This document shows positions 3,305 through 50,568 of a DNA stretch of 64,000 bases, piece after piece. Made by a program: the position numbers and the translations under genes. Within the stretch, counting starts at the first letter, position 1, and the number at the start of each line of letters is the position of its first letter. A model generated the notes under the pieces. It was not told the origin of the DNA. It saw only the letters and a list, made by a program, of their open reading frames with translations, and did no database searches. The DNA is from Squalus acanthias (lineage: Eukaryota). The stretch lies in NCBI GenBank assembly GCA_030390025.1, contig CM059432.1, positions 34,350,001 through 34,414,000 of the forward strand. The letters are read 5' to 3'.

Positions 3305-4603
3305 CTCCCCATAACCCTTGACTCCCCTGTAGCTCAAAAATCTGTCTATCTCCGCCTTGAATATATTCAATGACTCCGCCTCCACAGCTCTCTGGGGTAG
3401 AGAATTCCAAAGATTCACGACCCTCTGAGAAGAAATTCCTCCTCATCTCTGTTTTAAATGAGCGCTCCCTTATTCTGAAACTGTGCCCCCTCGTTCTAGA
3501 TTCCCCCACGAGGGGAAACATCCTCTCAGCATCTACCTTGTCGAGCCCCCTCAGAATCTTATATGTTTCAATAAGTTCACCTCTCATTCTTCTAAACTCC
3601 AATGAGTATAGGCCCAACCTGCTCAACCTTTCTTCATAAGACAACCCCTTCAACTCAGGAATCAACCTCGTGAACCTTCTCTGAACTGCATCCATTGCAA
3701 GTATATCCTTCTTTAAATAAGGAGACCAAAACTGTACACAGTACTCCAAGTGTGATCTCACCAACACCCTGTACAGTTATAGCAAGACTTCCCTACTTTT
3801 ATACTCCACCCCCCCCCCCTTGCAATAAAGGCTAACATTCCATTAGCCTTCCTAATTGCTTGCTGTACCTGCATGCTAACTTTTTATGTTTCATGTACGA
3901 GGACACCCAGATCCCTCTGTACCACAGCATTCTGTAGTCTCTCTCCATTTAAATAATATTTTGCTTTTTTATTCTTCCTACCAAAGTGGATAACCTCACA
4001 TTTTCTCACATTATGCTCCATCTGCCAAATTTTTGCCCACTCACTTAACCTATCTACATCCCTTTGCAGACTCTTTGGGCTGGATTTTGCCGGCGCTCAG
4101 AGGGCAGGTTTGGAGGCGGGTCAGGAGGTAAAATCGGAAGTATTGACGACGGGTTCCGATCCCGCCGTCAACCTGCCTCCGTGCAACTTTACCAAAGGCG
4201 GCCTCCCAGACTCCCGATCAGTCCCACCACCAAGCGGTGGGCTAGGCCCTTAAGGCAGTTAACAGCTTGTTAACTGCCTGGATAATGCTATTTTGACAGC
4301 GGTTTTACATTTTGCCACTTTTTCTGCGTGTTCCACGCCGTTCCCAAAACACGCCAGCTGATTGAGCCGGGTTCACAAGTGGCTGCCTTCTTGACAGCTG
4401 CAGCTCCAGCATAAAAACTGAGCTCTCAACAAGGCTCAGTTGCAGGTGGCAGAACTTTGTTTTTTCAGGTCTTGGAAAACTTTTTGCAGGTCTACTGATC
4501 TTGGAAGTGGTGAAGCTGAGATCCATCTCCACTGTGACCTCCTGGGAAAACCCTCTCCCCACATTGACCAAGCACTTCCTCAACTGAGATATCTACCAGC
4601 AGG

Positions 4604-5837
4604 ATGGGAAACATTTATTTCCTTTCATCCTGGTCCTCAGATTCGGAGGAAGAGTAGCCACGGCAGCAGCAGAACCAGGCACAACAGCAGCACCAACAAC
4701 AGGAGCGCCAACCTCCTGCTCACCCACCTGATGCTGCACAGGGCAGAGGGCGTCAGCGCAGGGCTGCACATCACCGCAGGAGATACCCCCAACACAGGGT
4801 TTACAGGCCGAGGATGACCTTCCTCAACATGACTGAGCAGCAGTGCCAAAGGAGGCTGAGACTTTCACGAGAGGTAGTCGGTGACATCTGCGCAATGCTG
4901 TACCAACACCTGGAGCCCAGAGGAACGGGTGGACACCCCTTACCAGTGGCTGTCAAAGTCACCACCGCACTCAATTTTTTTGCTTCAGGGTCCTTCCAGG
5001 GCTCATCAGCAGACATCAGCGGCGTCTCCCAGTCGGCTGCACACACTTGCATCACGCAGGTAACCGATGCCCTCTTTGCAAAGGCGCACAATTACATCCA
5101 CTTCTCCACGGATGAAGCAAGTGTAACTGCGCATGTGGTTGGCTTTGCAAATATGGCAGGCTTGCCAAGTGTGCAGGGCGTCATAGACTGCACACATGTG
5201 GCCCTTAGGGCACCCCATCACAACCCAGCTGTTTTTGTCAACCGCAAGGGCTTCCATTCCCTTAACGTGCAGCTGGTGTGTAACCACAGGAAGGACATTT
5301 TGCATGTTTGCGCGAAGTACCCTGGCAGTTGTCATGACTCGTTCATCCTGCGCCAGTCTAGTGTGCCTCCACTCTTCAATCCGCCAACACAACTTTCCGG
5401 ATGGCTACTTGGAGACAAGGGCTATCCCCCTGAAGACGTGGCTGATGAGGCCGTTGAGGAGGTCATCGAATGAAGCTGAGGAGCGCTACAATACCAGCCA
5501 CATTTCGACCAGATCCATCATCGAGCAAACCATCGGCTTGCTGAAGATGCAATTCAGATGCCTTGACAGATCAGGTGGAGCCCTACAGTACTTAGCAGCC
5601 AGGGTCTCCAGAATCGTCGTGGTCTGCTGTGCACTGCACAACATCACACAGCATCGTGGCTTGCAGCTGCCTGAGGAACAAGTGGCTCAGCACATAGCCT
5701 CCTCAGATGATGATGAGGAGGAGGAGGAGGAGGAGGAAGAAGACCTTGTGGAGGCGGATGAGCCAGCTGCAGCAGCACGCGAGCACCTTGCTGTTCGGGA
5801 TGCAAGGGATGCACTAATCTTTGCCAGATTCGCTTAG
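4604..5837 (+). pseudogene. Harbinger (HARBI1-like) DDE transposase, frameshifted
   Basis: GVIDCTH, HDSFIL, LLGDKGY, then a frameshift in a C-run near 5426-5430, then IEQTIGLLKMQFRCL and CCALHN; acidic tail; start position approximate. Confidence 0.88.
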
Positions 5838-6425
5838 GTAGACAAATCAAACACATGTGACAGGCATCTTCTTATCACACCATAGACAATGGACAAGAAC
5901 CTGTGGTTTCCTATCACTCTCACCACCATCATTACAAATGCAAGTCGCCCTGAGCCCTCAATGTGCAACTTCCATTTCCCAGATCACATAGGCCAGAACT
6001 TCAACTGTTTGCCATCACTTCTGTTTAATCAATGCACAAAAGCATGACAATGGCAAAAATTAAATACAACAGAACACCCAAGTGACTACCCTTGTGACTA
6101 ATTGTGCTTTATCTTCCTCTTACACGTGCTTCTATGTGGTGCTTCCCCTGTGGCTTCAGCAGATGTGGAGGCACCTTGCTCACTTTCATGCTGCTCTTGC
6201 TTCAACACCTTTGGCGGGCATCCTCTGGGTTTGCGAGCCTGTGAGGGCTCGGCAACAGTCTGCTCCTCCTGCGTCTGTGAAGGGCTGAAACGCCCATCTC
6301 AGTTGGGTGAGGACTCTGGTAGGGCTCTGACCGAGGGCTACTCAGTGGCATGGGAGTGTGAGCGCTTGGAGAGGTACCCCTACTTCCTTGTTGCCTGCCA
6401 CCAACATCCCTCTCATGGGTCAGCC

Positions 6426-8058
6426 CTACTTCAGTGCTGACCCATCAGGGGGGCCATGAGGACCCGTATCTGCACTGGCAGTCCTACTCAAAAGGACTTC
6501 CATGAAGCTTTGGTTTCTCTGCTCAATAGCTGCCCATTGCTCCTCCAGAGATGTCAGTCTATTCTGAACATTCACCATGTTTTCCAGACCCTGGTGACTT
6601 ATTTTCTCCATGGCCATAGCCAACCTCTCCTCTACTGTAGCCACCCTTTCCAGAGAGGTAGCCATCCTTACCACGGAGGTAGCCATTCTTTCCACGGAGG
6701 TTGCCAACCTTTCCGTGGTGGTGCGTTCATGCGCCATTGCCTCCACAAAGGCACTGTTCATGTTAGAGTTGGACTCCTCCATCCTCTCCACACTCGCAGT
6801 AACCCTGGAGACAAAACCTGCCAGAAACTCCTGCACTTGTTCCTGTAGTTCCAGCACCACTCTCTTTCTGGATGGACCCGGAGACACAGGGTCGACATGC
6901 AGCTGAGCAGAGCTGGGAGCGCCCTGCACCCTCTGACGAGGACTCTCCACTGTTGTCTCTGTCTCCAACATCTGCTGATTCTCACTTGTGAGCTCTGATA
7001 CACCAGGTGACAACACTACTCTATGTCGCGAAGGTCCCCCCGAGGTGTGCGTATCTGCGCTGGTGCTGGGTGCGCTTAATTCTGCTGACGCTGCGCCCTC
7101 AGAGGTTGCAGGTTCCTCTGAGGTGTCTTCCAGCTCAGGCTCTTCCTCCTGGACAGTGGGGAGGGGGCTGTCGATGGTCCTGTGGGGGAGTAAAAGCATG
7201 AGTTAGACATGTGATATTTACGTAGCATGCACATGGAATTGTGCAGATGATCATAAGTCAATCTGTGAGCATCAGATGCCATATCAGTCACTCATGCAAT
7301 GTAAATGAGAGAGATGCAAATCTATTCTGTCACCAGCTTGCTCTGCTGCGCCCGTCTGACCGTCCCCCACTTCCACATCCTCATCACCTCCAATGATCTC
7401 CAGGGCCGCCTCCTCAGCCTTGGTGAGATGGGCTATGGAAGATGGCCCTCCTCCTGTCTTAACCCTCTCCCTCTTATTGTGGGCTCTCTTTTCCTGCAAT
7501 GAGGGACACAAGTGGAGTTTGAGTGAGAATGATGGAGTGAGTGTAGAGAATCCATAGCATAAATGCTTAGGAGACAAAGATGGAGTGAGGTGCCAAATCC
7601 AAGGGCCCTCCCTGTGCACTGTTAGTTGTTGTCATAGCATCACAGTGATAGCGAGTGTGAGGGCAGCATAGTCGAATAGTGAAGTGATTGTGTACATAGA
7701 GAGAGAGAGGGATGGTTAAGGGTGCAATAGATGTAAGGGTAAAGTGGGATGTGCAGGAGTAGGTTGACAATGCAGAGTGCTGGTGATGAGAGGAGATGAG
7801 GAGCAGACTGAGGTCAGGTGTGATGTTATACTCACTTTTCCTAAGTGGACCAGGTCATTGAACCTTTTTCTGCACTGCACCCAGGTTCGAGCTCACTTCC
7901 TGATCAATTTGCAGCCAGACTGCTTTTGTTTTCTGCGGTGGCTTCTTCCACCCAGAGGATGGGAAGAGTACCTCCCTGCGCCCTCTGACTCCCTCCACAA
8001 GAGCATGGAGGGAGTCATCATCAAATCTGGGAGAGGCCTTGGCCCTTGAGGTAGTCAT
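6426..8058 (-). pseudogene. Harbinger Myb/SANT-like DNA-binding protein, 3 exons (~8058-7836, 7493-7334, 7179-6426), frameshifted
   Basis: PRFDDDSLHALVEGV..WLQI..WVQCRKRFNDL; exon 2 KTGGGP; GT-AG sites; coiled-coil-like C-terminus with short ATSVER repeats. Confidence 0.8.
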
Positions 8059-9012
8059 GGCAGCAGTTGTCACAGGCAAATCCAGCAGCAAATAATGAGA
8101 AAATGAACCAAGGCTGCATGGGCCCCTTAAAAGCAGCTGGCTCACAGACGTCAGCAGAGGCGAGTTACAGACCCCAAACACTAATTGGCCAGGGGAGCGC
8201 ACACGCAGGGACTCAATTGCCCAATTAGGGCAAAATCGCCAATTTTTACCGGCTGAAAGCGGCAGCGGGATCGGCACCCCCCGACCACCTGACCCGCACC
8301 CAACCCGCCACCAATGGGAAAATCGCGGCCTTTGTGTCCTCCTCACAACTTGCTTTCCCACCTATCTTTGTATCGTCAGCAAATTTGGCAACAGTATACT
8401 TGGTCCCTTCATCCAAGTCATTAACATAGATTGTAAATAGTTGAGGCCCCAGCACTGATCCCTGTGGCACCCCACTAGTTACAGTTTGCCAACCTGAAAA
8501 TGTCCCATTTATCCCGACTCTCTGGTTTCTGTTAGTTAGCCAATCCTCTATCCATGCTAATATATTATCCCCAACACTGTGAGTTCTTATCTTGTGCAGT
8601 AACCTTTTATGTGGCACCTTAGCAAATGCCTCTGGAAATCCAAATACACTACATCCACTGGTTCTCCTTTATCCACCCTACTCGTTACATCCTCAAAGAA
8701 CTCTAGTAAATTTGTCAAACACAATTTCCCTTTCATAAAACCATGCTGACTCTGCTTGATTGTATTATGATTTTCTAAATGTCCTGCTACTACTTCCTTA
8801 ATAATGGATTCCAGCATTTTCCCAATGACAGATGTTAGGCTAACTGGGCTATAGTTTCCTGCTTTCTGCCTCCTTCCTTTCTTGAATAGGGACATTACAT
8901 TTGAGGTTTTCCAATCCGCTGGGACCTCTCTAGAATCCAGGGAATTTTGGTAGATTACAACCAACGCATCCACCATCTCTGCAGCTACTTTTTTTAAGAC
9001 CCTAGGATGCAG

Positions 9013-15200: not shown

Positions 15201-18200
15201 GGACAAGTGCAAGGGCCAAGTTCACGGCACTGTGGGTGGTTCAGCTGCACAAGGGGGGAGGAGTAAGAGTGGAAGGGCAATAGTGGTAGGAGACTCAATA
15301 GTGAGGGGTGCAGACAGGTGTTTCTGCGGCCGCAGACGTGACTCCAGGATGGTATGGTGCCAGGGTCAAGGATGTCACTGAATGGCTGCAGGGCATTCTG
15401 AAGGGGGAGGGCGAACAGTCAGAGGTTGTGGTTCACATTGGTACCAACGACATAGGTAGAAAGAGGGATGAGGTCCTGCAACAAGAATTTAGGGAGCTAG
15501 GTAGCAGATTAAAAAGCAGGACCTCAAAGGTTGTAATCTCTGGATTACTCCCGGTGCCACGTGCTAGTGAATATAGGAATAGGAGAATAGAGCAGATGAA
15601 TGCGTGGCTAAAGAGTTGGTGCAGGAGGGAGGGCTTTAGTTTCCTGGATCACTGGGTCTGTTTCTGGGGAAGGTGGGACCTGTACAAGTCGGACGGGTTG
15701 CACCTGAACCGGAGTGGGACCAACATCCTTGTGGAGAAGTTTGCTAGTGCTGTTGGGGGGGATTTAAACTAACTTGGCAGGGGGATGGGATACGGAGTGG
15801 AGCTATAGTAGGGGGTGATGGACAACCAAATATAGAGGAAAAAACAAGTCAGTCTGGAAGGCAGAGCAAATATGTAACGGCACAAGGGAGTATGGCAAGG
15901 CTGGATGGCATTTATTTTAATGCAAGGAGTCTTGCGAGTAAGGCAGATGAATTGAAGGTGTTGCTATCACAGAGACATGGTTGAGGGAAGGGCAGGACTG
16001 GCAGCTCAATATTCCGGGGTATAGATTCTTCAGGCGAGACAGAGGAGGGTGTAAAAGAGGAGGGGGTGTCGCAATATTAATCAAGAAGTCAATTACTGCT
16101 GTAAGGAGGGATGATATCTTAGCAGGTTCCTCTAATGAGGCCATATGGGTAGAACTTAAAAACAAAAAGGGGGCAAGCACTTTGCTGGGAGTGTACTATA
16201 GGCTCCCAAACAGTCAGGGGGAGATAGAAGAACAGATATGTAGGCAAATCTCAGAGAAGTGTAGAAATAATAGGGTAATAATAGTAGGGGATTTCAACTT
16301 CCCCAATATTAACTGGGATAGTCAGAGTGTGAAAGGCTTAGAGGGTGCGGAATTCTTAAAGTGCATCCAGGAGAGCTTTTTGAGCCAGCATGTAGAAAGT
16401 CCTACAAGAGAGGGGGCGGTACTGGATCTAATTCTAGGGAATGTAGCCGGGCAAGTGATAGATGTTTCAGTGGGAGAGCATTTTGGTGACAGTGACCATA
16501 AATCGGTGAGATTTAAGGTAGTCATGGAAAAGGACAAAGATGGACCGGAAATAAAGGTTCTAAATTGGGGGAAGGCCGATTTTAATATGATAAGGCAGGA
16601 TCTGGCCAAAGTGGACTGGGATCAGCTACTTGTAGGAAAATTCACATCAGAGCAGTGGGAGTCATTCAGAAAGGAAATAGAGAGAGTACAGTGCCAACAT
16701 GTTCCCGTAAAGGTCAAGGGTGGGACCAACAAGTCCAGGGCACCCTGGATGTCAAGGGATATACGAGAAAGGATTAGGAAAAAAAGGGAGGCTTTTGGCA
16801 GATACAAAGGACAAAACAGTGGAAGCCCTAGAGGAGTATAGAAAGTGCAGGGGGGTACTTAAAAAAGAAATTAGGAGAGCGAAGAGGGGGCATGAAAAAA
16901 CACTGGAGGGCAAAATAAAGGAAAATCCCAAGGTGTTTTATAAGTATGTTAAGGGCAAGAGAATAACCCGGGAAAGAGTAGGGCCCATTAGGGGCCAAAG
17001 TGGCAATCTGTGTGCAGAGCCGGAAGATGTAGGTGAGGTTTTAAATGAATATTTTGCATCTGTGTTCACTATGGAGAAGGACGATGTAGGCATAGAAATC
17101 AGGCAGGAGGATTGTGATATACTTGAACAATTTACAATGAGAGGGAGGAGGTACTAACGGTTTTAGCAGGCTTAAAAGTGGATAAATCCCCAGGCCCAGA
17201 CAAGATGTATCCCAGGCTGCTGTGTGAGGCAAGGGAGGAGATTGCAGGGGCTCTGACACAAATTTTCAGAGCCTCTCTGGCCACAGGGGAGGTGCCAGAG
17301 GACGGGAGGACAGCTAACGTAGTACCATTATTCAAGAAGGGATGTAGGGATAAACCAAGGAATTACAGGCCAGTGAGCCTAACATCAGTGGTAGGGAAAT
17401 TATTGGAAACAATTCTGAGGGACAGAATTAGTCTCCACTTGGAGAGGCAAGGATTAATCAAGGATAGTCAGGGGGAGATCATGTCTAACCAATTTGATTG
17501 AATTTTTCGAGGGGGTGACTAGGTGTGTGGATGAGGGTAGTGCAGTTGATATAGTCTACATGGACTTCAGTAAGGCTTTTGACAAAGTCCCGCATGGGAG
17601 ACTGGTCAAGAAGGTAAGAGCCCATGGGATCCAGGGAAATTTGGCACATTGGATCCAAAATTGGCTTAGTGACAGGAGGCAGAAGGTGATGGTCGAAGGT
17701 TGTTTTTGTGACTGGAAGCCTGTGTCTAGTGGTGTACTGCAGGGATCGGTGCTGGGTCCCTTGCTGTTTGTAGTGTACATTAATGATTTAGATATGAATG
17801 TAGGAGGTATGATCAGTAAGTTCGCAGATGACACGAAAATTGTTGGAGTGGTAAATAGCGAGGAGGGAAGCCTCAGGCTACAGGACGATATAGACGGGTG
17901 GGTCAGATGGGCAGAACAGTGGCAAATGGAATTTAACCCTGAAAGGTGTGAGGTGATGCATTTTGGGAGGACTAACAAGGCAAGGGAATACACAATGAAT
18001 GGTAGGACCCTAGGAAGGACAGAGGATAAGAGGGACCTTGGTGTGCATGTACATAGATCTCTGAAGGCAGCAGGACAGGTAGATAAGTTGGGTAAGAAGG
18101 CTTATGGGATACTTGCCTTCATTAGCCGAGGCTTAGAATATAAGAGCAGGGAGGTTATGATGGAGCTGTACAAAATGCTAGTTAGGCCACAGCTGGAATA

Positions 18201-18732
18201 CTGTGTGCAGTTCTGGTCGCCACACTATAGGAAGGATGTGATTGCATTGGAGAGGGTGCAGAGGAGATTCACCAGGATGTTACCTGGGCTGCAGCGCTTC
18301 AGCTATGAAGAGAGACTGGACAGGCTGGGGTTGTTTTCCTTAGAGCAGAGAAGGCTGAGGGGGGACCTGATTGAGGTGTACAAAATTATGAGGGGCATAG
18401 ATAGGGTAGATAGAAAGGAACTTTTCCCCTTAGTAGAGGGGTCAATAACCAGGGAGCATAGTTTCAAGGTAAGGGGCAGGAGGTTTAGAGGGGATTTGAG
18501 GAAAAACTTTTTCACCCAGAGGGTGGTTGGAATCTGGAACTCACTGCCTGAAAGGATGGTAGAGGCAGGAACCCTCACAACATTCAAGAAGCATTTAGAT
18601 GAGCACTTGAACCGCCATAGCATACAAGGCTACGGACCAAGTGCTGGAAAATGGGATTAGAATAGATAGGGTTTGATGGCCGGATTGGACACGATGGGCC
18701 GTAGGGCCTCTTTCTGTGCTGTATGACTCTAT
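15201..18732 (+). mobile_element. CR1 LINE 'CR1-B' (esterase ORF1 part and frameshifted ORF2); tail resumes at 23044-23054
   Basis: VVGDSIVRG, HIGTND, DGLHL; APE and RT ORFs (15981, 17494); (ATGACTCT)n tail split by Harbinger H2. Confidence 0.92.
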
Positions 18733-19245
18733 GGGCTAAAAATTCAGTTGGTTGCGCCTTCCCTTCGCGCCTTAAGAGGGCGCTAATGGGGCGCAATGCA
18801 GCTAGCGCCCGGGCGCAGCGATGTTTGCGCCGCTCGGGAACTTCAGTAGACATTTTGCGGCGGCGCTAAACTTTATCGCCGCGGTCCCCTGCGCCCGCGG
18901 ATTGTGACATCATACGAGAGTGCAACGCCCGTGTGGCGCCCCGGAGCAGAAATTCAGTGGCGCCCCCATCCTTACCGCCTGGCGCACCCAACGACCGGTA
19001 GAGTGGAACGCTAACAATCGCTGTGGGGCTCGGGGGGGCGCTATTTAAAGGGGGCCTCTTCCTGTCTTTCTCTGTGGTTGACATTTTTGCACCACTCGTT
19101 CTGAGAGAGAGAGAGAGAGATTCGGAGAGAGAGAGAGAGAGACTTGTGCATTGAGTCAACGCTGTGTGAGGTAGTTTTGGCTACTGAGCATAACTTCGCT
19201 GGTACTTTGGTTTCTGGCCTTCATAACTTTGCTTGCAAAGAGACT

Positions 19246-20276
19246 ATGGGGGCTGCACTGATGTGGGGCGTCGTCCTGCGCCAGCTGAATCGGAGGAGAC
19301 GGAGACGCAGAGAGAGAGTGGCAATGATGGCCAGATGGAGGAGGGCCAACAGGCGTCTGTACAGGAGAGCTTACCCTCCCAGGGTATATCGTGAACAGCT
19401 CTCCTACATTCATATGTCTGATGAGCAGTGTCTGCGAAGGCTGCGCTTCAGCAAGGAGGTGGTCACTGAGCTCTGCCACCTGCTGCAGCCAGATCTGCAG
19501 CCTCAACTGAGGTCCTGGACGTCTCTGTCGGTGGCAGTGAAGGTCACAGTGGCTCTGAACTTTTATGCTACTGGCTCATTTCAATCTGCTGTTGGGCACA
19601 TCGCCAATCTCTCCCAGTTCGCGGTGCATTGCTGCATCAGGAAGGTCACAAATGCCCTGTTTAAAAGGAGACGACAGTTCATCTCTTTCCCCATGACCCC
19701 AGACAAGCAGCAAGAACGCGCTCTGGGCTTTGCGAGGATAGCGGGCTTCCCCATGGTGCAGGGCGCCATTGACTGCACGCATGTGGCTTTGCGTGCTCCG
19801 CATGAGAATGCCGAGGATTTCCGGAACAGAAAGGGGTTCCATTCCTTGAATGTTCAGTTGGTCTGTGACCACAGACAGCTGATACTCGCTGTCAATGCCC
19901 ACTATCCTGGCAGCTGCCACGATGCTTTCATCCTGCGCCAGACTACTGTGGCAGAACTTTTCGAGGCACCGCATCAGCCAGTTGGTTGGCTTCTCGGGGA
20001 CAAGGGGTATCCACTGAGCACCTGGCTGATGACACCGCTCCGTACGCCCAACACCCCTGCTGAGCTGCGGTACAACGAGAGCCATCAAGCTACCAGGAAC
20101 ATCGTGGAGCACACAATCGGCGTGCTCAAGCAACGGTTCCGCTGTCTCGACCATTCTGGAGGAGCCCTGCAGTACTCGCCTGAGCGAGTATCCCACATCG
20201 TAGTTGTGTGCTGCATGCTGCATAACATGGCAATCCTCAGGACCCAGCCAATGCCACCAGGCCTTGGAGCACCACC

Positions 20277-20364
<88 letters not shown>

Positions 20365-20472
20365 GAAGAGGAGGAGGAGGATGATCAGCAGCAGCACCAA
20401 GGCGTGAGGGCGGCCCACAATGGTGAAACTGCAAGGGCCGTCCGTCAACGGCTGATAGCAAGCCGCTTCTAG
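19246..20472 (+). CDS. Harbinger (HARBI1-like) DDE transposase, 408 aa
   Basis: Open from ATG 19246; GAIDCTH, HDAFIL, LLGDKGY, VEHTIGVLKQRFRCL, CCMLHN; 34-Glu tract near the C-terminus. Confidence 0.93.
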
Positions 20473-20783
20473 GCCCCTGCTGTGGAAATGGCTTCTGCCA
20501 TTGAGAACAGCATGAACGAACCCAACACGCAACCCCTAAGCCGGCCAAGGCACCAATGATTCCAAACACCAAACATGTATAATTTGAGTACCAAAACTTA
20601 TTTATTTTACAAACTCTGTGTGTGTCATTTACTCATGACACACTCATACAAATAAACACAAAAAAACAGTCATTACCATAACTGGTTCTCACAACCTGGA
20701 GATCATGTGCAAAACACTCAACAAAAGTTTGACCTCGAACCTCGGCCTTTAATAAAAAAATAACCAGCATTTTGTCACACCTC

Positions 20784-22684
20784 CTACATCGAGGGTGAAC
20801 TCCTTCCCATGCGCCCTTCCCCCCTTCTTACCCTACTGCTCCTCCGCAATGGGACCTCAGTGGCTGCAGCAAGGCTGGTGGAAGGCTGCTGACTGTCAGG
20901 CCCTGACAATGCAGATGCCCTTGAGGGACGGCCTCGACCAGTTCTGGGCCTGGAGGGCCCGGCTGCAGACTGCACCAACTCTGCATGGGCGGCAGCAGTC
21001 TGTCCTACAGGCGGTGGCAACTGCAGTGGAGAAGCGACAGTGGTGGCAGCAGGAATGCTGTCATCTTGCGCGAGGACAACAACTCCCTGCTCGACCGGCA
21101 CACTGGCACTCCCACGGGGCAGCACTTCAGCATCCGGAGCAATCTGCTGGAGAACAGATTGCTGGCCTGCTGCGGCGCGGTGACAGCCCCGGGGAAATGT
21201 GTCCGAACCAGCGAGGATGGCAGCAGACAGTGCTCGCGTGGCCTCAATCTGAGTCTGCATGAGAGCAGTCTGAGATTGAATTGCAGCACTGAGCTTCAGG
21301 GTCGCATCCGCCTGCGCTGCAGCGAAGTGCTCCACACTCCTTGCCAGCGCTTCAATGCATTCGGGCACCCTACCCACTGCAGCCATGAGCTCAGTGTGCA
21401 TGGCCACCGCCTGGGTGTTCATTTGCGCGATCAGCCGCTCCTCCTCTGTGTCCAGTGCAGCAGGACTCGCTGGCCTACTCTCCCTCCGGGGAGAAGGCCC
21501 CCGAGCTTCCCTACCCCCATCGCATTGCTGCAGCCCGCTGGGTCCTGGAGCTTCACCCTCATCAGACCCTTCCCCCCTGCTCCCCTCCAGGGAAGGCGTG
21601 TCCTCAGTGTCGGCATGGGCTTCCTCGGGAGAGGGTGGCTCTGATGGTCCGGCTTCCTCTTCCTCCTTAGCTGCAGCCTCACTCCCACTGGCAGCTTCAG
21701 GGCCCGTCTCCTCAGCTGGTGAATCACCATCTGAAAGCAGGGAGGTACAAGAGTGGCTTTAGCGTGAGGACAGGGTGGCAGTAAGGGAGGAATAAGTGCA
21801 GCGAGTTAGTAAGTTGGATTGAAAGTGTCAAAGGCTGGTGTTGTGAGGGACAAGTGGAAGGACAGAGGACAAAAAGGTGATGACCTTACCATTGCTGTCC
21901 AGAACGGGGTCGGCGTCTGCAGTGGCGACGGGACCGATCACCCGGCTTGCCACAATCCTGTGGACGCGCTCCTCCAGATCGCTGAGGGGTTGCAGCTGAG
22001 GCGGCCCTCCACCCGTCCGTTGCTGCTGTCTCCTATTATGCGCCAGCTTGGCCTGCAAGAAAAAGGACGGCGTCTGAGTAAATATACAGCCATGGTCTTG
22101 CCTGATGTGCCTCCCATAGGTGAATAGCCCTTACTGTACTACAGCCATGGTCTTGCCTGATGTGCCTCCCATAGGTGAATAGCCCTTACTGTACTACAGC
22201 CATGGTCTTGCCTGATGTGCCTCCCATAGGTGAATAGCCCTTACTGTACTACAGCCATGGTCTTGCCTGATGTGCCTCCCATAGGTGAATAGCCCTTACT
22301 GTATGCAAAGTGTGGAATGTGTGTGTGTGCTTCATGAAAGGGCCATAGGTGTTGGATGAGTGCTGTTAATTGTGGTTTTAAGACCCTCTGGCCATAGAGT
22401 GAGGCTGAGATGGAGGAATGGAGAGGTATTGCAAAAAAGCCACTCACCCTGACGACCCGAGTGAGGTCGTTGAACTTTTTCCGGCATTGTATATGGGTCC
22501 TGGGCACCATGCTCCTGGAGGAGACGTGCTGAGCCACCTCCCTCCACACCCTTCTGTAGTCGCGCGGCAAAGGCCTCCTGCCACTCTCAGGGTACAGTGT
22601 TGATCCTTGGCGCTCCACCGCGCCAACCAGAGCATCCAAGGCCCGCTCGCTGAAGCGCTGAGCTCGCTCTCTCGCCCTCTCCAT
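20784..22684 (-). CDS. Harbinger Myb/SANT-like protein, 448 aa, exons 22684-22448, 22052-21890, 21730-20784
   Basis: RFSERALDALV..WREVA..QCRKKFNDL; canonical GT-AG junctions (phase 0 and phase 1) give one continuous 1347-nt frame. Confidence 0.88.
22085..22303. repeat. 55-bp tandem repeat x4 inside the Myb gene intron 1
   Basis: tacagccatggtcttgcctgatgtgcctcccataggtgaatagcccttactgtac at 22085, 22140, 22195, 22250. Confidence 0.95.
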
Positions 22685-23054
22685 CCTTGGCTGGAAAATT
22701 GAAGGTCAGGTCTGTCCAGGCCGAGATTCAAGGCTGCAATGAGCAGGGTGTGGCTGGGGAGCAAGATCGCCCCCCCCCCTTTAAGAACTGGCCGGCGCCA
22801 GTGTGTCTGTGTTCCCTCGCTAACTGGCAGCACCTGCGCTGCGCTCGCGCTCTGAGTTAGCGCCTCACTCCTCGGCCTTTGCGCCTTAAGACAGGTGTGC
22901 AGCGCCTGATTTAGCGCTCCAGTCACCTCCCGGGGCGTTAAAAGTGAAGTTTCCAGTCAGTGGCGATAATTAGCGCCAGGTGCTAATTTTTGCGCCCGGC
23001 CGATAATTGCGCCCCAAATGGGGCGATACTGAATTTTTAGCCCTATGACTCTAT

Positions 23055-23206
23055 CGCAGTGTCCGAAGCTCGGACTCCAGCCCATCAACTCTGAGCCGAA
23101 GTTCCTCGAGCTGCAGACACTTACTGCAGATGTGGTTGCTGTGGATCACACTGGTGTCCACTAGCACCCACATGCTACAGCTGCAACACATCACCTGCCC
23201 TGCCAT
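23055..23206 (-). pseudogene. CR1-A ORF1 N-terminus (zinc finger plus leucine zipper)
   Basis: Hand translation MAGQVMCCSCSMWVLVDTSVIHSNHICSKCLQLEELRLRVDGLESELRTLR (CxxC...CxxC followed by heptad leucines). Confidence 0.85.
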
Positions 23207-23779
23207 CTCTATTGTATTTTATTTAACTAATAATTCAAGTTTTGAATTACCACTCAATTGTCTATTTATAGTTTTTAATCTAGGTAATAATCTTGTTTAA
23301 GTTATTAAAATCTTGTTTAAGTTATTAAATTTAGTTATATGCTTTAGGTCTTTACGGTAACTTAGCCCACAAGTCCTAGTTTAACTTTAACTAATACTCT
23401 TATTATTAATTCACTTACTGTTTTACTTACCCGGATCGAAATTTTTAATTTCCCGGCTCTTAGTTAAACCAATGCCCTCGTGTAGAGAGAGAAAAAAAGA
23501 GAAATACTCATCAACCAATCACTTATCTGCTTCCCTGTGACGTCACACTGATTTTTTTCCCCCCTGTTTTTCGAACTGATTCGAAAGTGGTCCGCTCCCG
23601 CTGCTGCTCGCAAGAGCTCGGTCTGGGCCTCGAGCCTTGGGCTTTATTTACTCGCTCCGCTGCCGCCGGTTCCCTCACAGGTCGATCCGCTCCCGCTGCT
23701 GCTCCCAGGGTTTTATGGTTATATTAAGAAAAAAAACAAGGGATGGAAGTGGGATCGGGTGAGGGCGTGACCACTGATA

Positions 23780-34265: not shown

Positions 34266-34290
34266 AGTTGTGTTCGCCAGCAAAGTTGCC

Positions 34291-37200
34291 GGTGTCTCCG
34301 GGCCCAGTGTCCCCGGGCTCAGTGTCCTCAACTCAGTGTCCCCGGGCTCAGTGTCCCCGGGCCCGGTGTCCCCGGGCTCGGTGTCCCCGGGCTCGGTGTC
34401 TCCGGGCCCAGTGTCCCCGGGCTCAGTGTCCTCAACTCAGTGTCCCCGGGCTCAGTGTCCCCGGGCCCGGTGTCCCCGGGCTCGGTGTCCCCGGGCTCGG
34501 TGTCTCCGGGCCCAGTGTCCCCGGGCTCAGTGTCCTCAACTCAGTGTCCCCGGGCTCAGTGTCCCCGGGCCCGGTGTCCCCGGGCTCGGTGTCCCCGGGC
34601 TCGGTGTCCCCTTGCACAGTGTCCCCGGGCTCAGTGTCCTCAACTCAGTGTCCCCGGGCTCGGTGTCCCCGGGCTCGGTGTCCCCGGGCCCGGTGTCCCC
34701 GGGCTAGGTGTCCCCGGGCTCAGTGTCCTCAACTCTGTCCCCAGGCTCGGTGTCCCCGGGCTCGGTGTCCCCGGGCCCGGTGTCCCCGGGCTCAGTGTCC
34801 CCGGGCTCGGTGTCCCCGGGCCCAGTGTCCCCGGGCTCAGTGTCCTCAACTCAGTGTCACCGGGCCCGGTGTCCCCGGGCTCGGTGTCCCCGGGCTCGGT
34901 GTCTCCGGGCCCAGTGTCCCCGGGCTCAGTGTCCTCAACTCAGTGTCCCCGGGCTCAGTGTCCCCGGGCCCGGTGTCCCCGGGCCCGGTGTCCCCGGGCT
35001 CGGTGTCCCCGGGCTCGGTGTCCCCGGGCTCAGTGTCCCCTTGCACAGTGTCCCCGGGCTCAGTGTCCTCAACTCAGTGTCCCTGGGCTCGGTGTCCCCG
35101 GGCTCGGTGTCTCCGGGCCCAGTGTCCCCGGGCTCAGTGTCCTCAACTCAGTGTCCCCGGGCTCAGTGTCCCCGGGCCCGGTGTCCCCGGGCCCGGTGTC
35201 CCCGGGCTCGGTGTCCCCGGGCTCGGTGTCCCCGGGCTCGGTGTCCCCTTGCACAGTGTCCCCGGGCTCAGTGTCCTCAACTCAGTGTCCCCGGGCTCGG
35301 TATCCCCGGGCTCGGTGTCCCCGGGCCCGGTGTCCCCGGGCTAGGTGTCCCCGGGCTCAGTGTCCTCAACTCTGTCCCCAGGCTCGGTGTCCCCGGGCTC
35401 GGTGTCCCCGGGCCCGGTGTCCCCGGGCTCAGTGTCCCCGGGCTCGGTGTCCCCGGGCCCAGTGTCCCCGGGCTCAGTGTCCTCAACTCAGTGTCCCCGG
35501 GCCCGGTGTCCCCGGGCTCGGTGTCCCCGGGCTCAGTGTCCTCAACTCAGTGTCCCCGGGCTCGGTGTCCCCGGGCCCGGTGTCCCCGGGCCCGGTGTCC
35601 CCGGGCTCGGTGTCCCCGGGCTCGGTGTCCCCGGGCTCAGTGTCCCCTTGCACAGTGTCCCCGGGCTCAGTGTCCTCAACTCAGTGTCCCTGGGCTCGGT
35701 GTCCCCGGGCTCGGTGTCCCCGGGCTCGGTGTCCCCGGGCTCGGTGTCCCCTTGCACAGTGTCCCCGGGCTCAGTGTCCTCAACTCAGTGTCCCCGGGCT
35801 CGGTGTCCCCGGGCTCGGTGTCCCCGGGCCCGGTGTCCCCGGGCTAGGTGTCCCCGGTCTCAGTGTCCTCAACTCTGTCCCCAGGCTCGGTGTCCCCGGG
35901 CTCGGTGTCCCCGGGCCCGGTGTCCCCGGGCTCAGTGTCCCCGGGCTCGGTGTCCCCGGGCCCAGTGTCCCCGGGCTCAGTGTCCTCAACTCAGTGTCCC
36001 CGGGCCCGGTGTCCCCGGGCTCGGTGTCCCCGGGCTCGGTGTCTCCGGGCCCAGTGTCCCCGGGCTCAGTGTCCTCAACTCAGTGTCCCCGGGCTCAGTG
36101 TCCCCGGGCCCGGTGTCCCCGGGCCCGGTGTCCCCGGGCTCGGTGTCCCCGGGCTCGGTGTCCCCGGGCTCAGTGTCCCCTTGCACAGTGTCCCCGGGCT
36201 CAGTGTCCTCAACTCAGTGTCCCTGGGCTCGGTGTCCCCGGGCTCGGTGTCCCCGGGCCCGGTGTCCCCGGGCTAGGTGTCCCCGAGCTCAGTGTCCTCA
36301 ACTCTGTCCCCAGGCTCGGTGTCCCCGGGCTCGGTGTCCCCGGGCCCGGTGTCCCCGGGCTCAGTGTCCCCGGGCTCGGTGTCCCCGGGCCCAGTGTCCC
36401 CGGGCTCAGTGTCCTCAACTCAGTGTCCCCGGGCCCGGTGTCCCCGGGCTCGGTGTCCCTGGGCTCGGTGTCTCCGGGCCCAGTGTCCCCGGGCTCAGTG
36501 TCCTCAACTCAGTGTCCCCGGGCTCAGTGTCCCCGGGCCCGGTGTCCCCGGGCCCGGTGTCCCCGGGCTCGGTGTCCCCGGGCTCGGTGTCCCCGGGCTC
36601 AGTGTCCCCTTGCACAGTGTCCCCGGGCTCAGTGTCCTCAACTCAGTGTCCCTGGGCTCGGTGTCCCCGGGCTCGGTGTCCCCGGGCCCGGTGTCCCCGG
36701 GCTAGGTGTCCCCGGGCTCAGTGTCCCCGGGCTCGGTGTCCCCGGGCCCAGTGTCCCCGGGCTCAGTGTCCTCAACTCAGTGTCCCCGGGCTCGGTGTCC
36801 CCGGGCTCGGTGTCCCCGGGCTCGGTGTCTCCGGGCCCAGTGTCCCCGGGCTCAGTGTCCTCAACTCAGTGTCCCCAGGCTCGGTGTCCCCGGGCTCGGT
36901 GTCCCCGGGCCCGGTGTCCCCGGGCTCAGTGTCCCCGGGCTCGGTGTCCCCGGGCCCAGTGTCCCCGGGCTCAGTGTCCTCAACTCAGTGTCCCCGGGCC
37001 CGGTGTCCCCGGGCTCGGTGTCCCCGGGCTCGGTGTCTCCGGGCCCAGTGTCCCCGGGCTCAGTGTCCTCAACTCAGTGTCCCCGGGCTCAGTGTCCCCG
37101 GGCCCGGTGTCCCCGGGCCCGGTGTCCCCGGGCTCGGTGACCCCGGGCTCGGTGTCCCCGGGCTCAGTGTCCCCTTGCACAGTGTCCCCGGGCTCAGTGT

Positions 37201-39761
37201 CCTCAACTCAGTGTCCCTGGGCTCGGTGTCCCCGGGCTCGGTGTCCCCGGGCTCGGTGTCCCCGGGCTCGGTGTCCCCTTGCACAGTGTCCCCGGGCTCA
37301 GTGTCCTCAACTCAGTGTCCCCGGGCTCGGTGTCCCCGGGCTCGGTGTCCCCGGGCCCGGTGTCCCCGGGCTAGGTGTCCCCGGGCTCAGTGTCCTCAAC
37401 TCTGTCCCCAGGCTCGGTGTCCCCGGGCTCGGTGTCCCCGGGCCCGGTGTCCCCGGGCTCAGTGTCCCCGGGCTCGGTGTCCCCGGGCCCAGTGTCCCCG
37501 GGCTCAGTGTACTCAACTCAGTGTCCCCGGGCCCGGTGTCCCCGGGCTCGGTGTCCCCGGGCTCGGTGTCTCCGGGCCCAGTGTCCCCGGGCTCAGTGTC
37601 CTCAACTCAGTGTTCCCGGGCTCGGTGTCCCCGGGCCCGGTGTCCCCGGGCCCGGTGTCCCCGGGCTCGGTGTCCCCGGGCTCGGTGTCCCCGGGCTCAG
37701 TGTCCCCTTGCACAGTGTCCCCGGGCTCAGTGTCCTCAACTCAGTGTCCCCGGGCTCGGTGTCCCCGGGCTCGGTGTCCCCGGGCCCGGTGTCCCCGGGC
37801 TAGGTGTCCCCGGGCTCAGTGTCCTCAACTCTGTCCCCAGGCTCGGTGTCCCCGGGCTCGGTGTCCCCGGGCCCGGTGTCCCCGGGCTCAGTGTCCCCGG
37901 GCTCGGTGTCCCCGGGCCCAGTGTCCCCGGGCTCAGTGTCCTCAACTCAGTGTCCCCGGGCCCGGTGTCCCCGGGCTCGGTGTCCCTGGGCTCGGTGTCT
38001 CCGGGCCCAGTGTCCCCGGGCTCAGTGTCCTCAACTCAGTGTCCCCGGGCTCAGTGTCCCCGGGCCCGGTGTCCCCGGGCCCGGTGTCCCCGGGCTCGGT
38101 GTCCCCGGGCTCGGTGTCCCCGGGCTCAGTGTCCCCTTGCACAGTGTCCCCGGGCTCAGTGTCCTCAACTCAGTGTCCCTGGGCTCGGTGTCCCCGGGCT
38201 CGGTGTCCCCGGGCCCGGTGTCCCCGGGCTAGGTGTCCCCGGGCTCAGTGTCCCCGGGCTCGGTGTCCCCGGGCCCAGTGTCCCCGGGCTCAGTGTCCTC
38301 AACTCAGTGTCCCCGGGCCCGGTGTCCCCGGGCTCGGTGTCCCCGGGCTCGGTGTCTCCGGGCCCAGTGTCCCCGGGCTCAGTGTCCTCAACTCAGTGTC
38401 CCCGGGCTCAGTGTCCCCGGGCCCGGTGTCCCCGGGCCCGGTGTCCCCGGGCTCGGTGTCCCCGGGCTCGGTGTCCCCGGGCTCAGTGTCCCCTTGCACA
38501 GTGTCCCCGGGCTCAGTGTCCTCAACTCAGTGTCCCTGGGCTCGGTGTCCCCGGGCTCGGTGTCCCCGGGCCCGGTGTCCCCGGGCTAGGTGTCCCCGGG
38601 CTCAGTGTCCTCAACTCTGTCCCCAGGCTCGGTGTCCCCGGGCTCGGTGTCCCCGGGCCCGGTGTCCCCGGGCTCAGTGTCCCCGGGCTCGGTGTCCCCG
38701 GGCCCAGTGTCCCCGGGCTCAGTGTCCTCAACTCAGTGTCCCCGGGCCCGGTGTCCCCGGGCTCGGTGTCCCTGGGCTCGGTGTCTCCGGGCCCAGTGTC
38801 CCCGGGCTCAGTGTCCTCAACTCAGTGTCCCCGGGCTCAGTGTCCCCGGGCCCGGTGTCCCCGGGCCCGGTGTCCCCGGGCTCGGTGTCCCCGGGCTCGG
38901 TGTCCCCGGGCTCAGTGTCCCCTTGCACAGTGTCCCCCGGCTCAGTGTCCTCAACTCAGTGTCCCTGGGCTCGGTGTCCCCGGGCTCGGTGTCCCCGGGC
39001 CCTGTGTCCCCGGGCTAGGTGTCCCCGGGCTCGGTGTCCCCGGGCTCGGTGTCCCCGGGCCCAGTGTCCCCGGGCTCAGTGTCCTCAACTCAGTGTCCCC
39101 GGGCCCGGTGTCCCCGGGCTCGGTGTCCCCGGGCTCGGTGTCTCCGGGCCCAGTGTCCCCGGGCTCAGTGTCCTCAACTCAGTGTCCCCGGGCTCAGTGT
39201 CCCCGGGCCCGGTGTCCCCGGGCCCGGTGTCCCCGGGCTCGGTGTCCCCGGGCTCGGTGTCCCCGGGCTCAGTGTCCCCTTGCACAGTGTCCCCGGGCTC
39301 AGTGTCCTCAACTCAGTGTCCCTGGGCTCGGTGTCCCCGGGCTCGGTGTCCCCGGTCCCGGTGTCCCCGGGCTAGGTGTCCCCGGGCTCAGTGTCCTCAA
39401 CTCTGTCCCCAGGCTCGGTGTCCCCGGGCTCGGTGTCCCCGGGCCCGGTGTCCCCGGGCCCGGTGTCCCCGGGCTCGGTGTCCCCGGGCTCGGTGTCCCC
39501 GGGCCCAGTGTCCCCGGGCTCAGTGTCCTCAACTCAGTGTCCCCGGGCTCAGTGTCCCCGGGCCCAGTGTCCCCGGGCTCAGTGTCCTCAACTCAGTGTC
39601 CCCGGGCTCGGTGTCCCCGGGCCCAGTGTTCCCGGGCCCGGTGTCCCCGGGCTCGGTGTCCCCGGGCCCAGTGTCCCCGGGCTCAGTGTCCTCAACTCAG
39701 TGTCCCCGGGCTCAGTGTCCTCAACTCAGTGTCCCCGGGCCCGGTGTCCCCAGGCTCAGTT
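34291..39761. repeat. GC-rich 15-bp minisatellite (GTGTCCCCGGGCYCR) with higher-order repeats
   Basis: Read directly; variant units gtgtcctcaactca, gtgtccccttgcaca, gtgtctccgggccca and ...ggctag recur with 429-bp periodicity. Confidence 0.98.
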
Positions 39762-39872
39762 TCCCCAACCTAGTGGCCCTTATGTTCCAGAAGGAGTAAA
39801 ATAAGCACGCAGATTTCCTATCCCTGAATACTGTGCAGAGAATGATACTGGAAATTGGGCATGCGTGGGACT

Positions 39873-43527: not shown

Positions 43528-44965
43528 TGAGTACAAAATCCAGGAAGTTATACTAATCCTATATAAAACACTAGTTCAGCCCCAGCTGGAGTATTGTGTC
43601 CAATTATGGGCACCGCACTTTAGGAAGGATATGAAGGCTTTGGAGAGGGTACAGAAGAGATTTACAAGAATGGTTCTAGGGATGAGGAATTACAGTTACA
43701 TGGATAGATTGGAGAAGCTGAGGTTGTTCTCCTCAGAGCAGAGAAGGTTAAGAGGAGATTTGATAGAGGTGTTTAAAATCATGAAGGGTTTAAATAGAGT
43801 AAATAAAGAGAAAGGGGGAAGAATTCGGTTGCTTTGCGCCTCCCGTTAGCGCCCTAAGAGGGCTCGCGAAATTGACCAGACATTTTGCAGCGGCGCTAAA
43901 CACTACCGCCACGATCTCCTGCGCCTGCAGATTGTGACGTCAGTCGAGCGTGCAACGCCTCGGTAGCGCCCCGGACTGGATATTGAGTGGCGTCCCCTGC
44001 CTTACCGCCTGCCGCTAGCAATGACAGGTTGAGGGGACCGTTTTGCAGTCGGCAAGGGACTGGGGGAGTGCTATTTAAAGGCGACCGCTTCCTGCCTTTT
44101 TTTGTTGGCGACATTTTTGCACCACGCATTCTGAGAGAGAGAGACCTTTGGAGAGATTCAACGCTGTGTGAAGGAGTTTTGGGTACTGAGCAGCACTTTG
44201 CAGGTTCATTTTGATTTGACCTTCCTTGCATCGATTTAGAAGAGACTATGGGGGCTGCACTCTGAGCTCTTTCCCTGGGCCTTTCCATTGTTCTTTCCAG
44301 CAGAATTGATGTACAGATCTCTCCAGGCCAAGATTCAAGGCTGCAATGAGCAGGGTGTGGATGGAGAGCAAGATCGACCCTCCCCTTTAAGAACTGGCCG
44401 GTGCCAGTGTGTCTGTGTTCCATTGCTGACTGACATCACATGAGCTTCGCCAGCGCTCTGAGGTAGCGCCTCGCTCCTCGGCGTTAGCGCCTTAAGAGAG
44501 GTGTGTAGCGCCTGATTTAGCACTCCAATCACCTCCAGGGGCGATAGAAGCCAAGTTTGCAGTCGAGGTGAGAATTAGCTAAACTTTGCGCCCGGCCGAT
44601 AATTGCGCCCCAAACGGGGCGATACCAAATTTCTCCCCCAAACTCTTTCCACTGGCTGAAGGGTCGTTAACCGGAGAGCACAGATTTAAGGTGATTGGCA
44701 AAAGAACCAGAGGCGACATGAGGAAAAAAATTTTATGCAACGAGTGGATAGGATTTGGAATGCACTGCCTGATAGGGTGGTGGAAACAGATTCAATAGTA
44801 GCTTTCAAAAGGGAATTGGATGAATACTTGGAAGGAGAAAAAATTGCAGGGACAATGGGAAAGTGTCGGCCAGTGGGACTAACTGGATTGCTCTTCAAAA
44901 GAGCCAGTGCAGACTCGATGAGCTGAATGGCCTCCTTCTGTGCCGTACTATTCTATGATTCTATA
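43528..44965 (+). mobile_element. CR1 3' fragment split by a Harbinger derivative
   Basis: ALERVQKRFTRM...; rejoins as gagAAActctttcc; (TTCTATGA)n tail. Confidence 0.85.
43814..44639 (+). mobile_element. Non-autonomous internal-deletion derivative of the H2 family (826 bp)
   Basis: TIRs GGGGGAAGAATTCGGT / ACCAAATTTCTCCCCC; TSD AAA; collinear with both ends of H2. Confidence 0.92.
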
Positions 44966-46562: not shown

Positions 46563-46721
46563 GGGCTAGAAATTCGATTCGGGCAGTGGCGCAATTCGGG
46601 TGGTATCGGGTCGGCCGCCCATTATATGCAGTGCCTGATGGAACTGAACATCACGCACTGCGTATAACGGGTGGCCGGTACCCCCCGTTTTGCACCACCA
46701 CCCAAGATGAATTTCTAGCCC
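46563..46721. mobile_element. 159-bp palindromic Harbinger (Tourist-like) MITE
   Basis: GGGCTAGAAATTC / GAATTTCTAGCCC; TSD TAT; arms complementary almost to the centre. Confidence 0.9.
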
Positions 46722-47822: not shown

Positions 47823-50568
47823 CGGGAGGGGCAGGACTGGCAGCTCAATATTCCGGGGTATAGAATCTTCAGGCGAGACAGAGGGGGGCGTAAAAGAGGA
47901 GGGGGTGTCACAATATTAATGAAGGAGTCAATTACTGCTGTAAGGAGGGATGATATCTTAGCAGGTTCCACTAATGAGGCCATATGGGTAGAACTTAAAA
48001 ACAAAAAGGGGGCAAGAACTTTGCTGGGAGTGTACTATAGGCCCCCAAACAGTCAGGGGGAGATAGAGGAACAGATATGTAAGCAAATCTCATAGAAGTG
48101 TAGAAATAATAGGGTAATAAAAGTAGGGGATTTCAACTTCCCCAATATTAACTGGGATAGTCAGAGTGTGAAAGGCTTAGAGGGTGCAGAATTCTTAAAG
48201 TGCATCCAGGAGAGCTTTTTGAGCCAGCATGTAGAAAGTCCTACAAGAGAGGGGGTGGTACTGGACCTAATTCTAGGGAATGTAGCCGGGCTAGTGGTAG
48301 AAGTGTCAGTGGGAGAGCATTTTGGTGACTGACCATAATTCGGTCATGGAAAAGGACAAAGATGGACCGGAAATATAGGTTCTAAATTGGAGGAAGGCCG
48401 ATTTTAATATGATAAGGATCTGGCCAAAGTGGACTGGGATCAGCTACTTGTGGGAAAATCCACATCAGAGTAGTGGGAGTCTTACAGAAAGGAAATAGAG
48501 AGAGTACAGCGCCAACATGTTCCCGTAAAGGTCAAGGGTGGGACCAACAAGCCCAGGGAACCCTGGATGTCAAGGGATATACAAGAATAGATTAGGAAAA
48601 AAATGGAGGCTTTTGGCAGATACAAAGGACTAAAAACAGTGGAAGCCCTAAAGGAGTATAGAAAGTGCAGGGGGTACTTAAAAAAGAAATTAGGAGAGCG
48701 AAGAGGGGGCATGAAAAAACACTGGCGGGCAAAATAAAGGTGTTTTATAAGTATATTAAGGGCAAGAGGATAACCCAGCAAGGAGTAGGGCCCATTAGGG
48801 ACCAAAGTGGCAATCTGTGTGCAGAGCCGGAAGATGTAGGTGAGGTTTTAAATGAATATTTTGCATCTGTGTTCACTATGGAGAAGGACGATGTAGGCAT
48901 AGAAATCAGGCAGGGGGATTGTGATATACTTGAACAAATTAGTATTGAGAGGGAGGAGGTACTAGAGGTTTTAGCAGGCTTAAAAGTGGATAAATCCCAG
49001 GCCCTGATGGGATGTATCCCAGGCTGCTGTGTGAGGCAAGGGAGGAGATTGCAGGGGCTCTGACACAAATTTTCACAACTCTCCTGGCCACAGGGGAGGT
49101 GCCAGAGGACTGGAGAACAGCTAACGTAGTACCATTGTTCAAGAAGGGTAGTAGGAATAAACCAGGGAATTACAGGCCAGTGAGCCTAACATCAGTGGTA
49201 GGGAAATTATTGGAAAAATTCTGAGGGACAGAATTAGTCTCCACTTGGAGAGGCAGGATTAATCAAGATAGTCAGCCTGGCTTTGTCAGGGGGAGATCAT
49301 GTCTAACCAATTTGATTGAATTTTTCGAGGGGGTGATTAGGTGTGTGGATGAGGGTAGTGCAGTTGATGTAGTCTACATGGACTTCAGTATGGCTTTTGA
49401 CAAAATCCCACATGGGAGACTGGTCAAGAAGGTAAGAGCCCATGGGATCCAGGGCAATTTGGCACATTGGATCCAAAATTGGCTTAGTGGCAGGAGGCAG
49501 AGGGTGATGGTCGAAGGTTGTTTTTGTGACTGGAAGCCTGTGTCCAGTGGTGTACCGCAGGGATCGGTGCTGGCTCCTTTGCTGTTTTTAGTGTACATTA
49601 ATGATTTAGATATGAATGTAGGAGGTATGATCAGTAAGTTCACAGATGACACGAAAATTGGTGGAGTGGTAAATAGCGAGGAGGGAAGCCTCAGGCTACA
49701 GGATGATATAGACGGGTTGGTCAGATGGGCAGAACAGTGACAAATGGAATTTAACCCTGAAAAGTGTGAGGTGATGCATTTTGGGAGGAATAACAAGGCA
49801 AGGGAATACACAATGAATGGTAGGACCCTAGGAAGGACAGAGGATCAGAGGGACCTTGGTGTGCATGTACATAGATCCCTGAAGGCAGCAGGACAGGTAG
49901 ATAAGGTGGTTAAAAAGGCATATGGGATACTTGCCTTCATTAGCCGAGGCATAGAATATAAGAGCAGGGAGGTTATGATGGAGCTGTACAAAACGCTAGT
50001 TAGGCCACAGCTGGAATACTGTGTGCAGTTCTGGTCGCCACACTATAGGAAGGATGTGATTGCATTGGAGAGGGTGCAGAGGAGATTCACCAGGATGTTA
50101 CCTGGGCTGGAGTGCTTCAGCTATGAAGAGAGACTGGACAGGCTGGGGTTGTTTTCCTTAGAGCAGAGAAGGCTGAGGGAGGACCTGATTGAGGTGTACA
50201 AAATTATGAGGGGCATAGATAGGGTAGATAGAAAGGAACTTTTCCCCTTAGTAGAGGGGTCAATAACCAGGGGGCATAGTTTCAAGGTAAGGGGCAGGAG
50301 GTTTAGAGGGGATTTGAGGAAAAACTTTTTCACCCAGCGGGTAGTTGGAATCTGGAACTCACTGCCTGAAAGGGTGGTAGAGGCAGGAACCCTCACAGCA
50401 TTCAAGAAGCATTTAGATGAGCGCTTGAAACGCCATAGCATACAAAGCTACGGACCGAGTGCTGGAAAATGGGATTAGAATAGACAGGGCTTGATGGCTG
50501 GCGCAGACACGATGGGCCGAAGGGCCTCTTTCTGTGCTGTATAACTCTATGACTATGACTCTATGACC
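47823..50568 (+). mobile_element. CR1 of the CR1-B subfamily, decayed ORF2
   Basis: Collinear and highly similar to 15985-18732; (ATGACTCT)n tail. Confidence 0.93.

Follow-up and report, generated by a model that had tools for sequence, protein, structure and literature searches.

An open-framed two-gene Harbinger-type transposon in a LINE tail of Squalus acanthias

The stretch of Squalus acanthias DNA analysed here, a 64-kb window, contains a Harbinger-type element of 4,311 bp at 18733-23043. The element shows 16-bp terminal inverted repeats (TIRs) at 18733-18748 (left, plus strand) and 23028-23043 (right, minus strand), complementary at 16 of 16 positions (100%), and a TAT target-site duplication placed directly at the left (18730-18732, in the octamer repeat that forms the 3' tail of a LINE) and right (23044-23046), both on the plus strand; the perfect TIRs and the TAT duplication of the preliminary description are therefore both present. 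When the window was scanned for GG-starting pairs with at least 12 of 14 matches and an exact 3-bp duplication, two real pairs were found, the element (14/14) and a 159-bp MITE (13/14), and none in the three block-shuffles of the window used as control. Between the TIRs and the genes are two subterminal regions, left (18749-19060, plus strand) and right (22700-23027, minus strand), containing GCGCY/RGCGC words with a density of 52 per kb at the two ends, against 5.2 inside the element and 1.8 in the rest of the window; these words, in which the left region is rich, are candidate sites presumably bound by the Myb protein. The left region also shows a TATA-like word, TATTTAAAGG, at 19042, identical in the sister elements, and the right region a conserved promoter-like word, CTTAAAGGGG, near 22776 on the minus strand. 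The ends are CpG-rich, as previously noted, with an observed/expected ratio of 1.16 at the left and 0.76 at the right, compared with 0.37 in the remaining window. CpG richness was discarded as a sign of youth, since an older element at about 43.8 kb has a ratio of 0.77. The convergent polyA-like signals reported before are found as candidate AATAAA words at 20651-20656 (plus strand, transposase mRNA) and 20601-20606 (minus strand, Myb mRNA). Since these signals are crossed (20585-20670), the two mRNAs would overlap antisense in their 3' UTRs by some tens of bases.

The transposase gene (19246-20472, plus strand) is a single exon, with an ATG at 19246 and a stop at 20472, encoding a protein of 408 aa with an acidic poly-E tail. 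This protein matches PF13359 (E 5e-42; 143.6 bits, with a cut-off of 24.8) and retains the acidic residues D176, D226, D252 and E288, three of which we take to be catalytic; this agrees with the open transposase with catalytic motifs that had been described. The homology search gave 408 matches among 1,245 candidates; 120 were listed, and the best 66 of these all carry the names of sharks or rays. Among these 120 homologues the best is a sawshark protein (73% identity) and the first from outside sharks and rays belongs to a sturgeon (51%). The transposase matches 88 of the 89 columns in which the 120 homologues have an 80% consensus, the exception being L122 in place of I, and the four acids are all kept in 38 of the 120. 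In a tree of 37 rows, made up of the query plus 36 homologues picked from the 120 for species spread, the transposase is sister to a sawshark protein (96/89) within a group of cartilaginous fish. Its AlphaFold2 model has a mean pLDDT of 90.9. A sequence search of the PDB for a solved relative gave no matches, and Foldseek with the model gave none at E 0.001 or better; the best of the weaker Foldseek rows are DDE transposases and integrases, namely TnsB, piggyBac and retroviral integrases.

The second gene, on the minus strand, shows three exons: exon 1 (22448-22684; 237 nt, 79 aa), which contains a Myb/SANT domain, PF13873 (33.7 bits, with a cut-off of 21.7), exon 2 (21890-22052; 163 nt) and exon 3 (20784-21730; 947 nt). 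Both introns have GT-AG ends, intron 1 (22053-22447) in phase 0 and intron 2 (21731-21889) in phase 1, and the exons join to 448 aa and a stop, in agreement with the three-exon Myb/SANT gene proposed before. Two homologue searches gave one match each, among 220 and 8000 candidates. The spliced protein aligns with P0008 without gaps across the first junction (46% over 109 positions) and is colinear over both junctions with P0122, an annotated sawshark protein (137 of 370 columns, 37%, E 8e-67). Together with exon 2 of two paralogues in the window, which has 163 and 160 nt and identical phases, these alignments make the predicted exon structure well supported by homology. Among the sequencing runs listed as containing parts of the element, none is recorded as RNA and five are taken for RNA by guess. 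The contigs of four sequencing runs (two of them RNA by guess) placed over 22250-23285 cover the intron and the ends alike and have no bearing on splicing; a loose end at the 22448 donor is absent among the 24 listed of 508, which is uninformative on splicing either way. Intron 1 contains four identical 55-bp units (22085-22303), and since their head-to-tail joints recur in all four runs, misassembly at this locus by itself does not account for the unit.

The Myb domain of the protein matches 28 of 33 conserved columns, with several aromatic and helix residues retained. At Q26, five of five relatives have R, and at G27, four of five. Q26 is also found in other copies, with about half of the depth of run X14 at 22608. 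The window letters at 22606 (G27) and 22599 (T29) are non-synonymous, non-conservative and within the Myb domain, and they have zero depth in the three runs that cover them, as far as 40 of the 66 variant rows are listed; since these runs may belong to other species, letters private to the copy and letters private to the species are indistinguishable here. Exon 3 shows in-frame gaps of 135, 21 and 9 nt relative to a paralogue at 58 kb. The 135 nt, which encode 45 aa of a helical region, are present in that paralogue and largely in P0122. Since five of the six indels relative to the 58-kb paralogue keep the frame, the short Myb form may be a lineage trait, which suggests that a shorter Myb protein could have evolved under selection. 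Compared with the paralogues, dN is lower than dS both in Myb exon 1 (0.28 and 1.70) and in the transposase (0.38 and 2.15), as expected of lineages that stayed mobile.

The window contains at least seven Harbinger-derived pieces. The preliminary description considered the one at 43814-44639 to be the element's own non-autonomous derivative, which is not confirmed: it shows other TIRs, an AAA duplication and an identity of 79-85% (left end 351/445, 79%; right end 316/374, 84.5%). With these TIRs and identities it is, judged from its sequence, a deletion derivative of a sister subfamily. It has 826 bp and retains both promoters and the first transposase codons. Loose ends at 22707 that reproduce its internal junction (24 contigs in run X1 and 52 in X14) mark it as a member of a high-copy family. 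A second two-gene Harbinger of another subfamily, at 4077-8330, shows a TTT duplication, degenerate TIRs and frameshifts in both genes, and its Myb gene has the same three-exon layout as that of the element. The remaining pieces are the 159-bp Harbinger-related MITE at 46563-46721, with a TAT duplication, an internally deleted copy at 53811-55266, a Myb-only copy interrupted by a LINE at about 56700-58957, and transposase fragments at 1030-1143 and 2346-2531. The window also contains a 5.5-kb GC-rich minisatellite (34290-39766; 15-bp unit, about 370 copies), a near-perfect long inverted repeat at 58981-59657 with arms of 203 and 78 nt at 99%, and, at 62936-63065, an inverted repeat whose 61-nt arms match at 100% and enclose an 8-nt spacer; the last two are possibly young foldback or MITE elements.

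The element is inserted in the tail of a LINE (15951-18732, plus strand) with endonuclease and RT pieces in shifted frames, which we take to be a CR1 from its motifs and tail. The last 400 codons of this LINE are still open. At the insertion its tail is an octamer repeat, (TATGACTC)n, which the transposon splits, leaving a remainder at 23044-23054; (TATGACTC)n also terminates a second LINE copy, at 50378-50571, which has 91.9% identity over 173 bases. Since the insertion hit this tail, an 11-bp direct repeat borders the element. At this single locus an 11-bp duplication is conceivable in place of the 3-bp one, but the duplication is 3 bp long in three neighbours, and the longer repeat is accounted for by the LINE tail. 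The duplications are TAT, TTT, AAA and TAT in the four elements in which they are present along with both ends. These four include 4077-8330, whose TIRs are weak (10/14, the chance level), accepted as bounded because both genes lie inside it and the repeat around it is otherwise continuous, and exclude a fifth, 53811-55266, because its two sides do not match and no duplication is seen. Compared with the consensus of zebrafish Harbinger3_DR in the available text of PMC3016246, the six-base flanks of the four elements match at 7, 7, 9 and 8 of 12 positions, with 7 or more matches at 1.5% of window positions as background, and all four elements show a target preference that reaches past the duplication. 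The flank consensus of the sister-type TIR, pooled in run X1, starts with TTA (agreement 0.54).

With a PF13359 DDE transposase that retains the acids, a Myb/SANT second gene, short TIRs with an initial G and a duplication of 3 bp, the element has the features of the broad PIF/Harbinger (PHIS) superfamily. It is a true DNA transposon of the two-gene Harbinger type, from a cartilaginous fish. The groups within the superfamily are defined by their target sites. The strict PIF/Harbinger group duplicates TWA and NuwaI duplicates CWG (Han et al. 2015), whereas the triplet is TAT in the element and TTT, AAA and TAT in its neighbours. NuwaII has the target C|TNA|G; C|TAT|G and C|TTT|G agree with it in the C and the G, but none of the four triplets is TNA. 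As NuwaII is described in the part of PMC4482050 available to us, the element shares with it the C and G adjoining the duplication, here C|TAT|G, TIRs of 13-46 bp starting with GG, two ORFs (DDE and Myb/SANT) and a length near 4.7 kb, but the duplication differs and cartilaginous fish are absent from the host list there. By description, and not by phylogeny, the element half fits NuwaII. Harbinger3_DR, an element reconstructed by Sinzelle et al. (2008), is known to us through the accessible parts of PMC2836001, PMC3016246 and PMC9392472; like it, the element combines a DDE transposase, a Myb-like protein, a 3-bp duplication and a palindromic extended target to which its flanks are similar, and unlike it, the element is a native copy, here compared by architecture and target flanks, and the triplets are not the CWG of Harbinger3_DR.

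The two proteins belong to the same families as the host proteins HARBI1 and NAIF1/MSANTD (PMC9392472, as far as its text was available), and the label 'putative nuclease HARBI1' is attached to database homologues of the transposase. The host genes are present as single copies, while the element has TIRs, a duplication and related copies. Domestication itself looks common in the clade: five groups of Harbinger-like proteins (P0016/P0019/P0060; P0006/P0010/P0013/P0014/P0017/P0021; P0004/P0005; P0009/P0015; P0044/P0049) are 76-92% identical across shark and ray species, have mostly lost the catalytic acids and resemble a set of several domesticated genes, specific to elasmobranchs and separate from HARBI1. 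That the present genes are likewise a domesticated pair, held open by host selection, is extremely improbable, since a domesticated gene loses its TIRs and has orthologues, and here the TIRs are perfect, the duplication and all the catalytic acids are kept, the locus is in a LINE tail amid repeats, and no listed homologue reaches the level of an orthologue, the nearest being 73% identical.

Parts of the element are present in 20 of the 24 sequencing runs listed, and words of the element in ten organisms (A-J), nine of them with a share of at least 0.30 and the best with 0.66. The word share was rejected as a measure of identity, since it is a union over thousands of related copies and unfit as the identity of one copy. 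In four of the 24 runs, contigs were placed on 22250-23285 at 90% likeness: at least 9,739 from X1 (of which about 55% was read) and 16,902 from X14, where the contig depth is no copy number. From these placements the wider family is very abundant in two organisms. Among the loose ends of X1, the right end that dominates is the TIR of the sister subfamily and not that of the element, and 76 X1 contigs that carry this sister-type TIR leave the right end into mixed flanks. The repeat that flanks the element is also present in all four runs examined. A piece bridging the right junction is absent among the 32 listed of 27,433, a gap that proves nothing.

A comparable system is the Harbinger-Snek of sea kraits, which, in the portion of PMC8437027 accessible to us, is likewise a vertebrate two-gene element that occurs as intact copies, as solo-ORF variants and as non-autonomous derivatives. 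Snek was transferred horizontally and is RNA-supported, whereas the shark and ray family looks long resident and is known from DNA. A recent transfer of the present element from a distant animal, for which the element words in ten organisms could speak, is disfavoured and very unlikely: the word share does not measure a single copy, the homologues and the tree place the transposase inside the shark-and-ray clade, diverged sister subfamilies are found within the same window, and the runs that contain the family also contain the flanking repeat. The age of the copy was approached with a simulation of neutral decay under assumed rates, in which it was scored whether both frames are open. With an indel rate of 0.05, both are open in 17% of the simulations at 1% divergence and in 3% at 2%; with an indel rate of 0.1, in 10% and 0.2%, respectively; and without indels, in 48% and 19%. 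The open frames thus suggest a decay of about 1-2% or less. The genes of the neighbouring elements carry stops or frameshifts, and the copy is young relative to them. The best explanation is a relatively young copy from a set of subfamilies that are long resident and very abundant.

The preliminary description called the element apparently intact and a potentially active two-component system. Both reading frames are open and the two-gene structure is complete, and the transposase is well conserved, with a single departure from its consensus columns; the Myb protein is not clearly intact, because of Q26, G27, T29 and the 45-aa gap, and activity is a possibility. We consider it fairly probable that the copy, although open-framed, combines a transposase that looks sound with a Myb helper that is doubtful, and that it is most likely not a working autonomous source today, because Q26 and G27 depart from the relatives, the T29 and G27 letters are without depth and the gap falls in a helical region. 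Provided with the Myb protein of a sister element, the transposase may still be competent. The main alternative, to which we give a minority but appreciable chance, is a natively active autonomous element that mobilises itself and related non-autonomous copies, its departures being traits of a young host-specific sub-lineage. Consistent with native activity are the perfect TIRs with their duplication, the frames open over 856 codons, the transposase at consensus with a confident model, the insertion later than a LINE with open final codons, and the four acids, kept here and in less than a third of the listed homologues; the apparently private letters may also be traits of a working sub-lineage, as the runs are possibly from other species. 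Against it are the non-conservative G27 and T29, found in no contig among the variant rows listed, the Myb gap and the prevalence of the sister-subfamily TIR among the right ends of X1.

A mechanism can be proposed from work on Harbinger3_DR and mPing. According to the parts of PMC2836001 and PMC9392472 available, Harbinger3_DR requires both proteins, its Myb-like protein binds to the ends and also to the transposase, which it carries into the nucleus, and excision in the superfamily is usually precise. In the shark element, promoters at each end would drive convergent mRNAs, the Myb/SANT protein would bind the GCGCC-rich subterminal DNA and the transposase and carry it into the nucleus, and the DDE transposase would cut at the TIRs. 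Insertion would occur at a palindromic site of about 15 bp, A-N-N-C/Y, an AT-only triplet and G/R-N-N-T, with the triplet duplicated, and the landing in the LINE tail would follow from an octamer repeat that spells such a site. After insertion the copy would have acquired a few private substitutions, two of them within the Myb domain.

Intact Harbingers are known from other animals: one sea krait has 269 such copies (PMC8437027), and 88 families have two intact ORFs (PMC4482050), according to the portions of these papers at hand. For cartilaginous fishes, Harbingers are listed for the whale shark (PMC8455134) and the grey reef shark (PMC12498223), as far as these texts were accessible, and none was found in the elephant shark, with a call for other cartilaginous fishes (PMC9179366). 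An intact elasmobranch Harbinger was not found described in the literature available to us; subscription papers, Repbase and the supplements of shark genomes may hold one. The element answers the gap on cartilaginous fishes pointed out in PMC9179366, although the two shark genome papers, in their accessible parts, already list the superfamily. It is doubtful, though conceivable, that it is a natively working two-component shark Harbinger with a palindromic target of about 15 bp and an AT-only triplet outside the published PHIS target classes, representing an extensive radiation in elasmobranchs, still mobile and a repeated source of host genes. Should the pair fail to transpose, the element would be a young copy like others in an abundant family. 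A native pair that transposes would provide an unreconstructed vertebrate Harbinger for the division of DNA binding and cutting between Myb protein and transposase, and for the reading of a long target.
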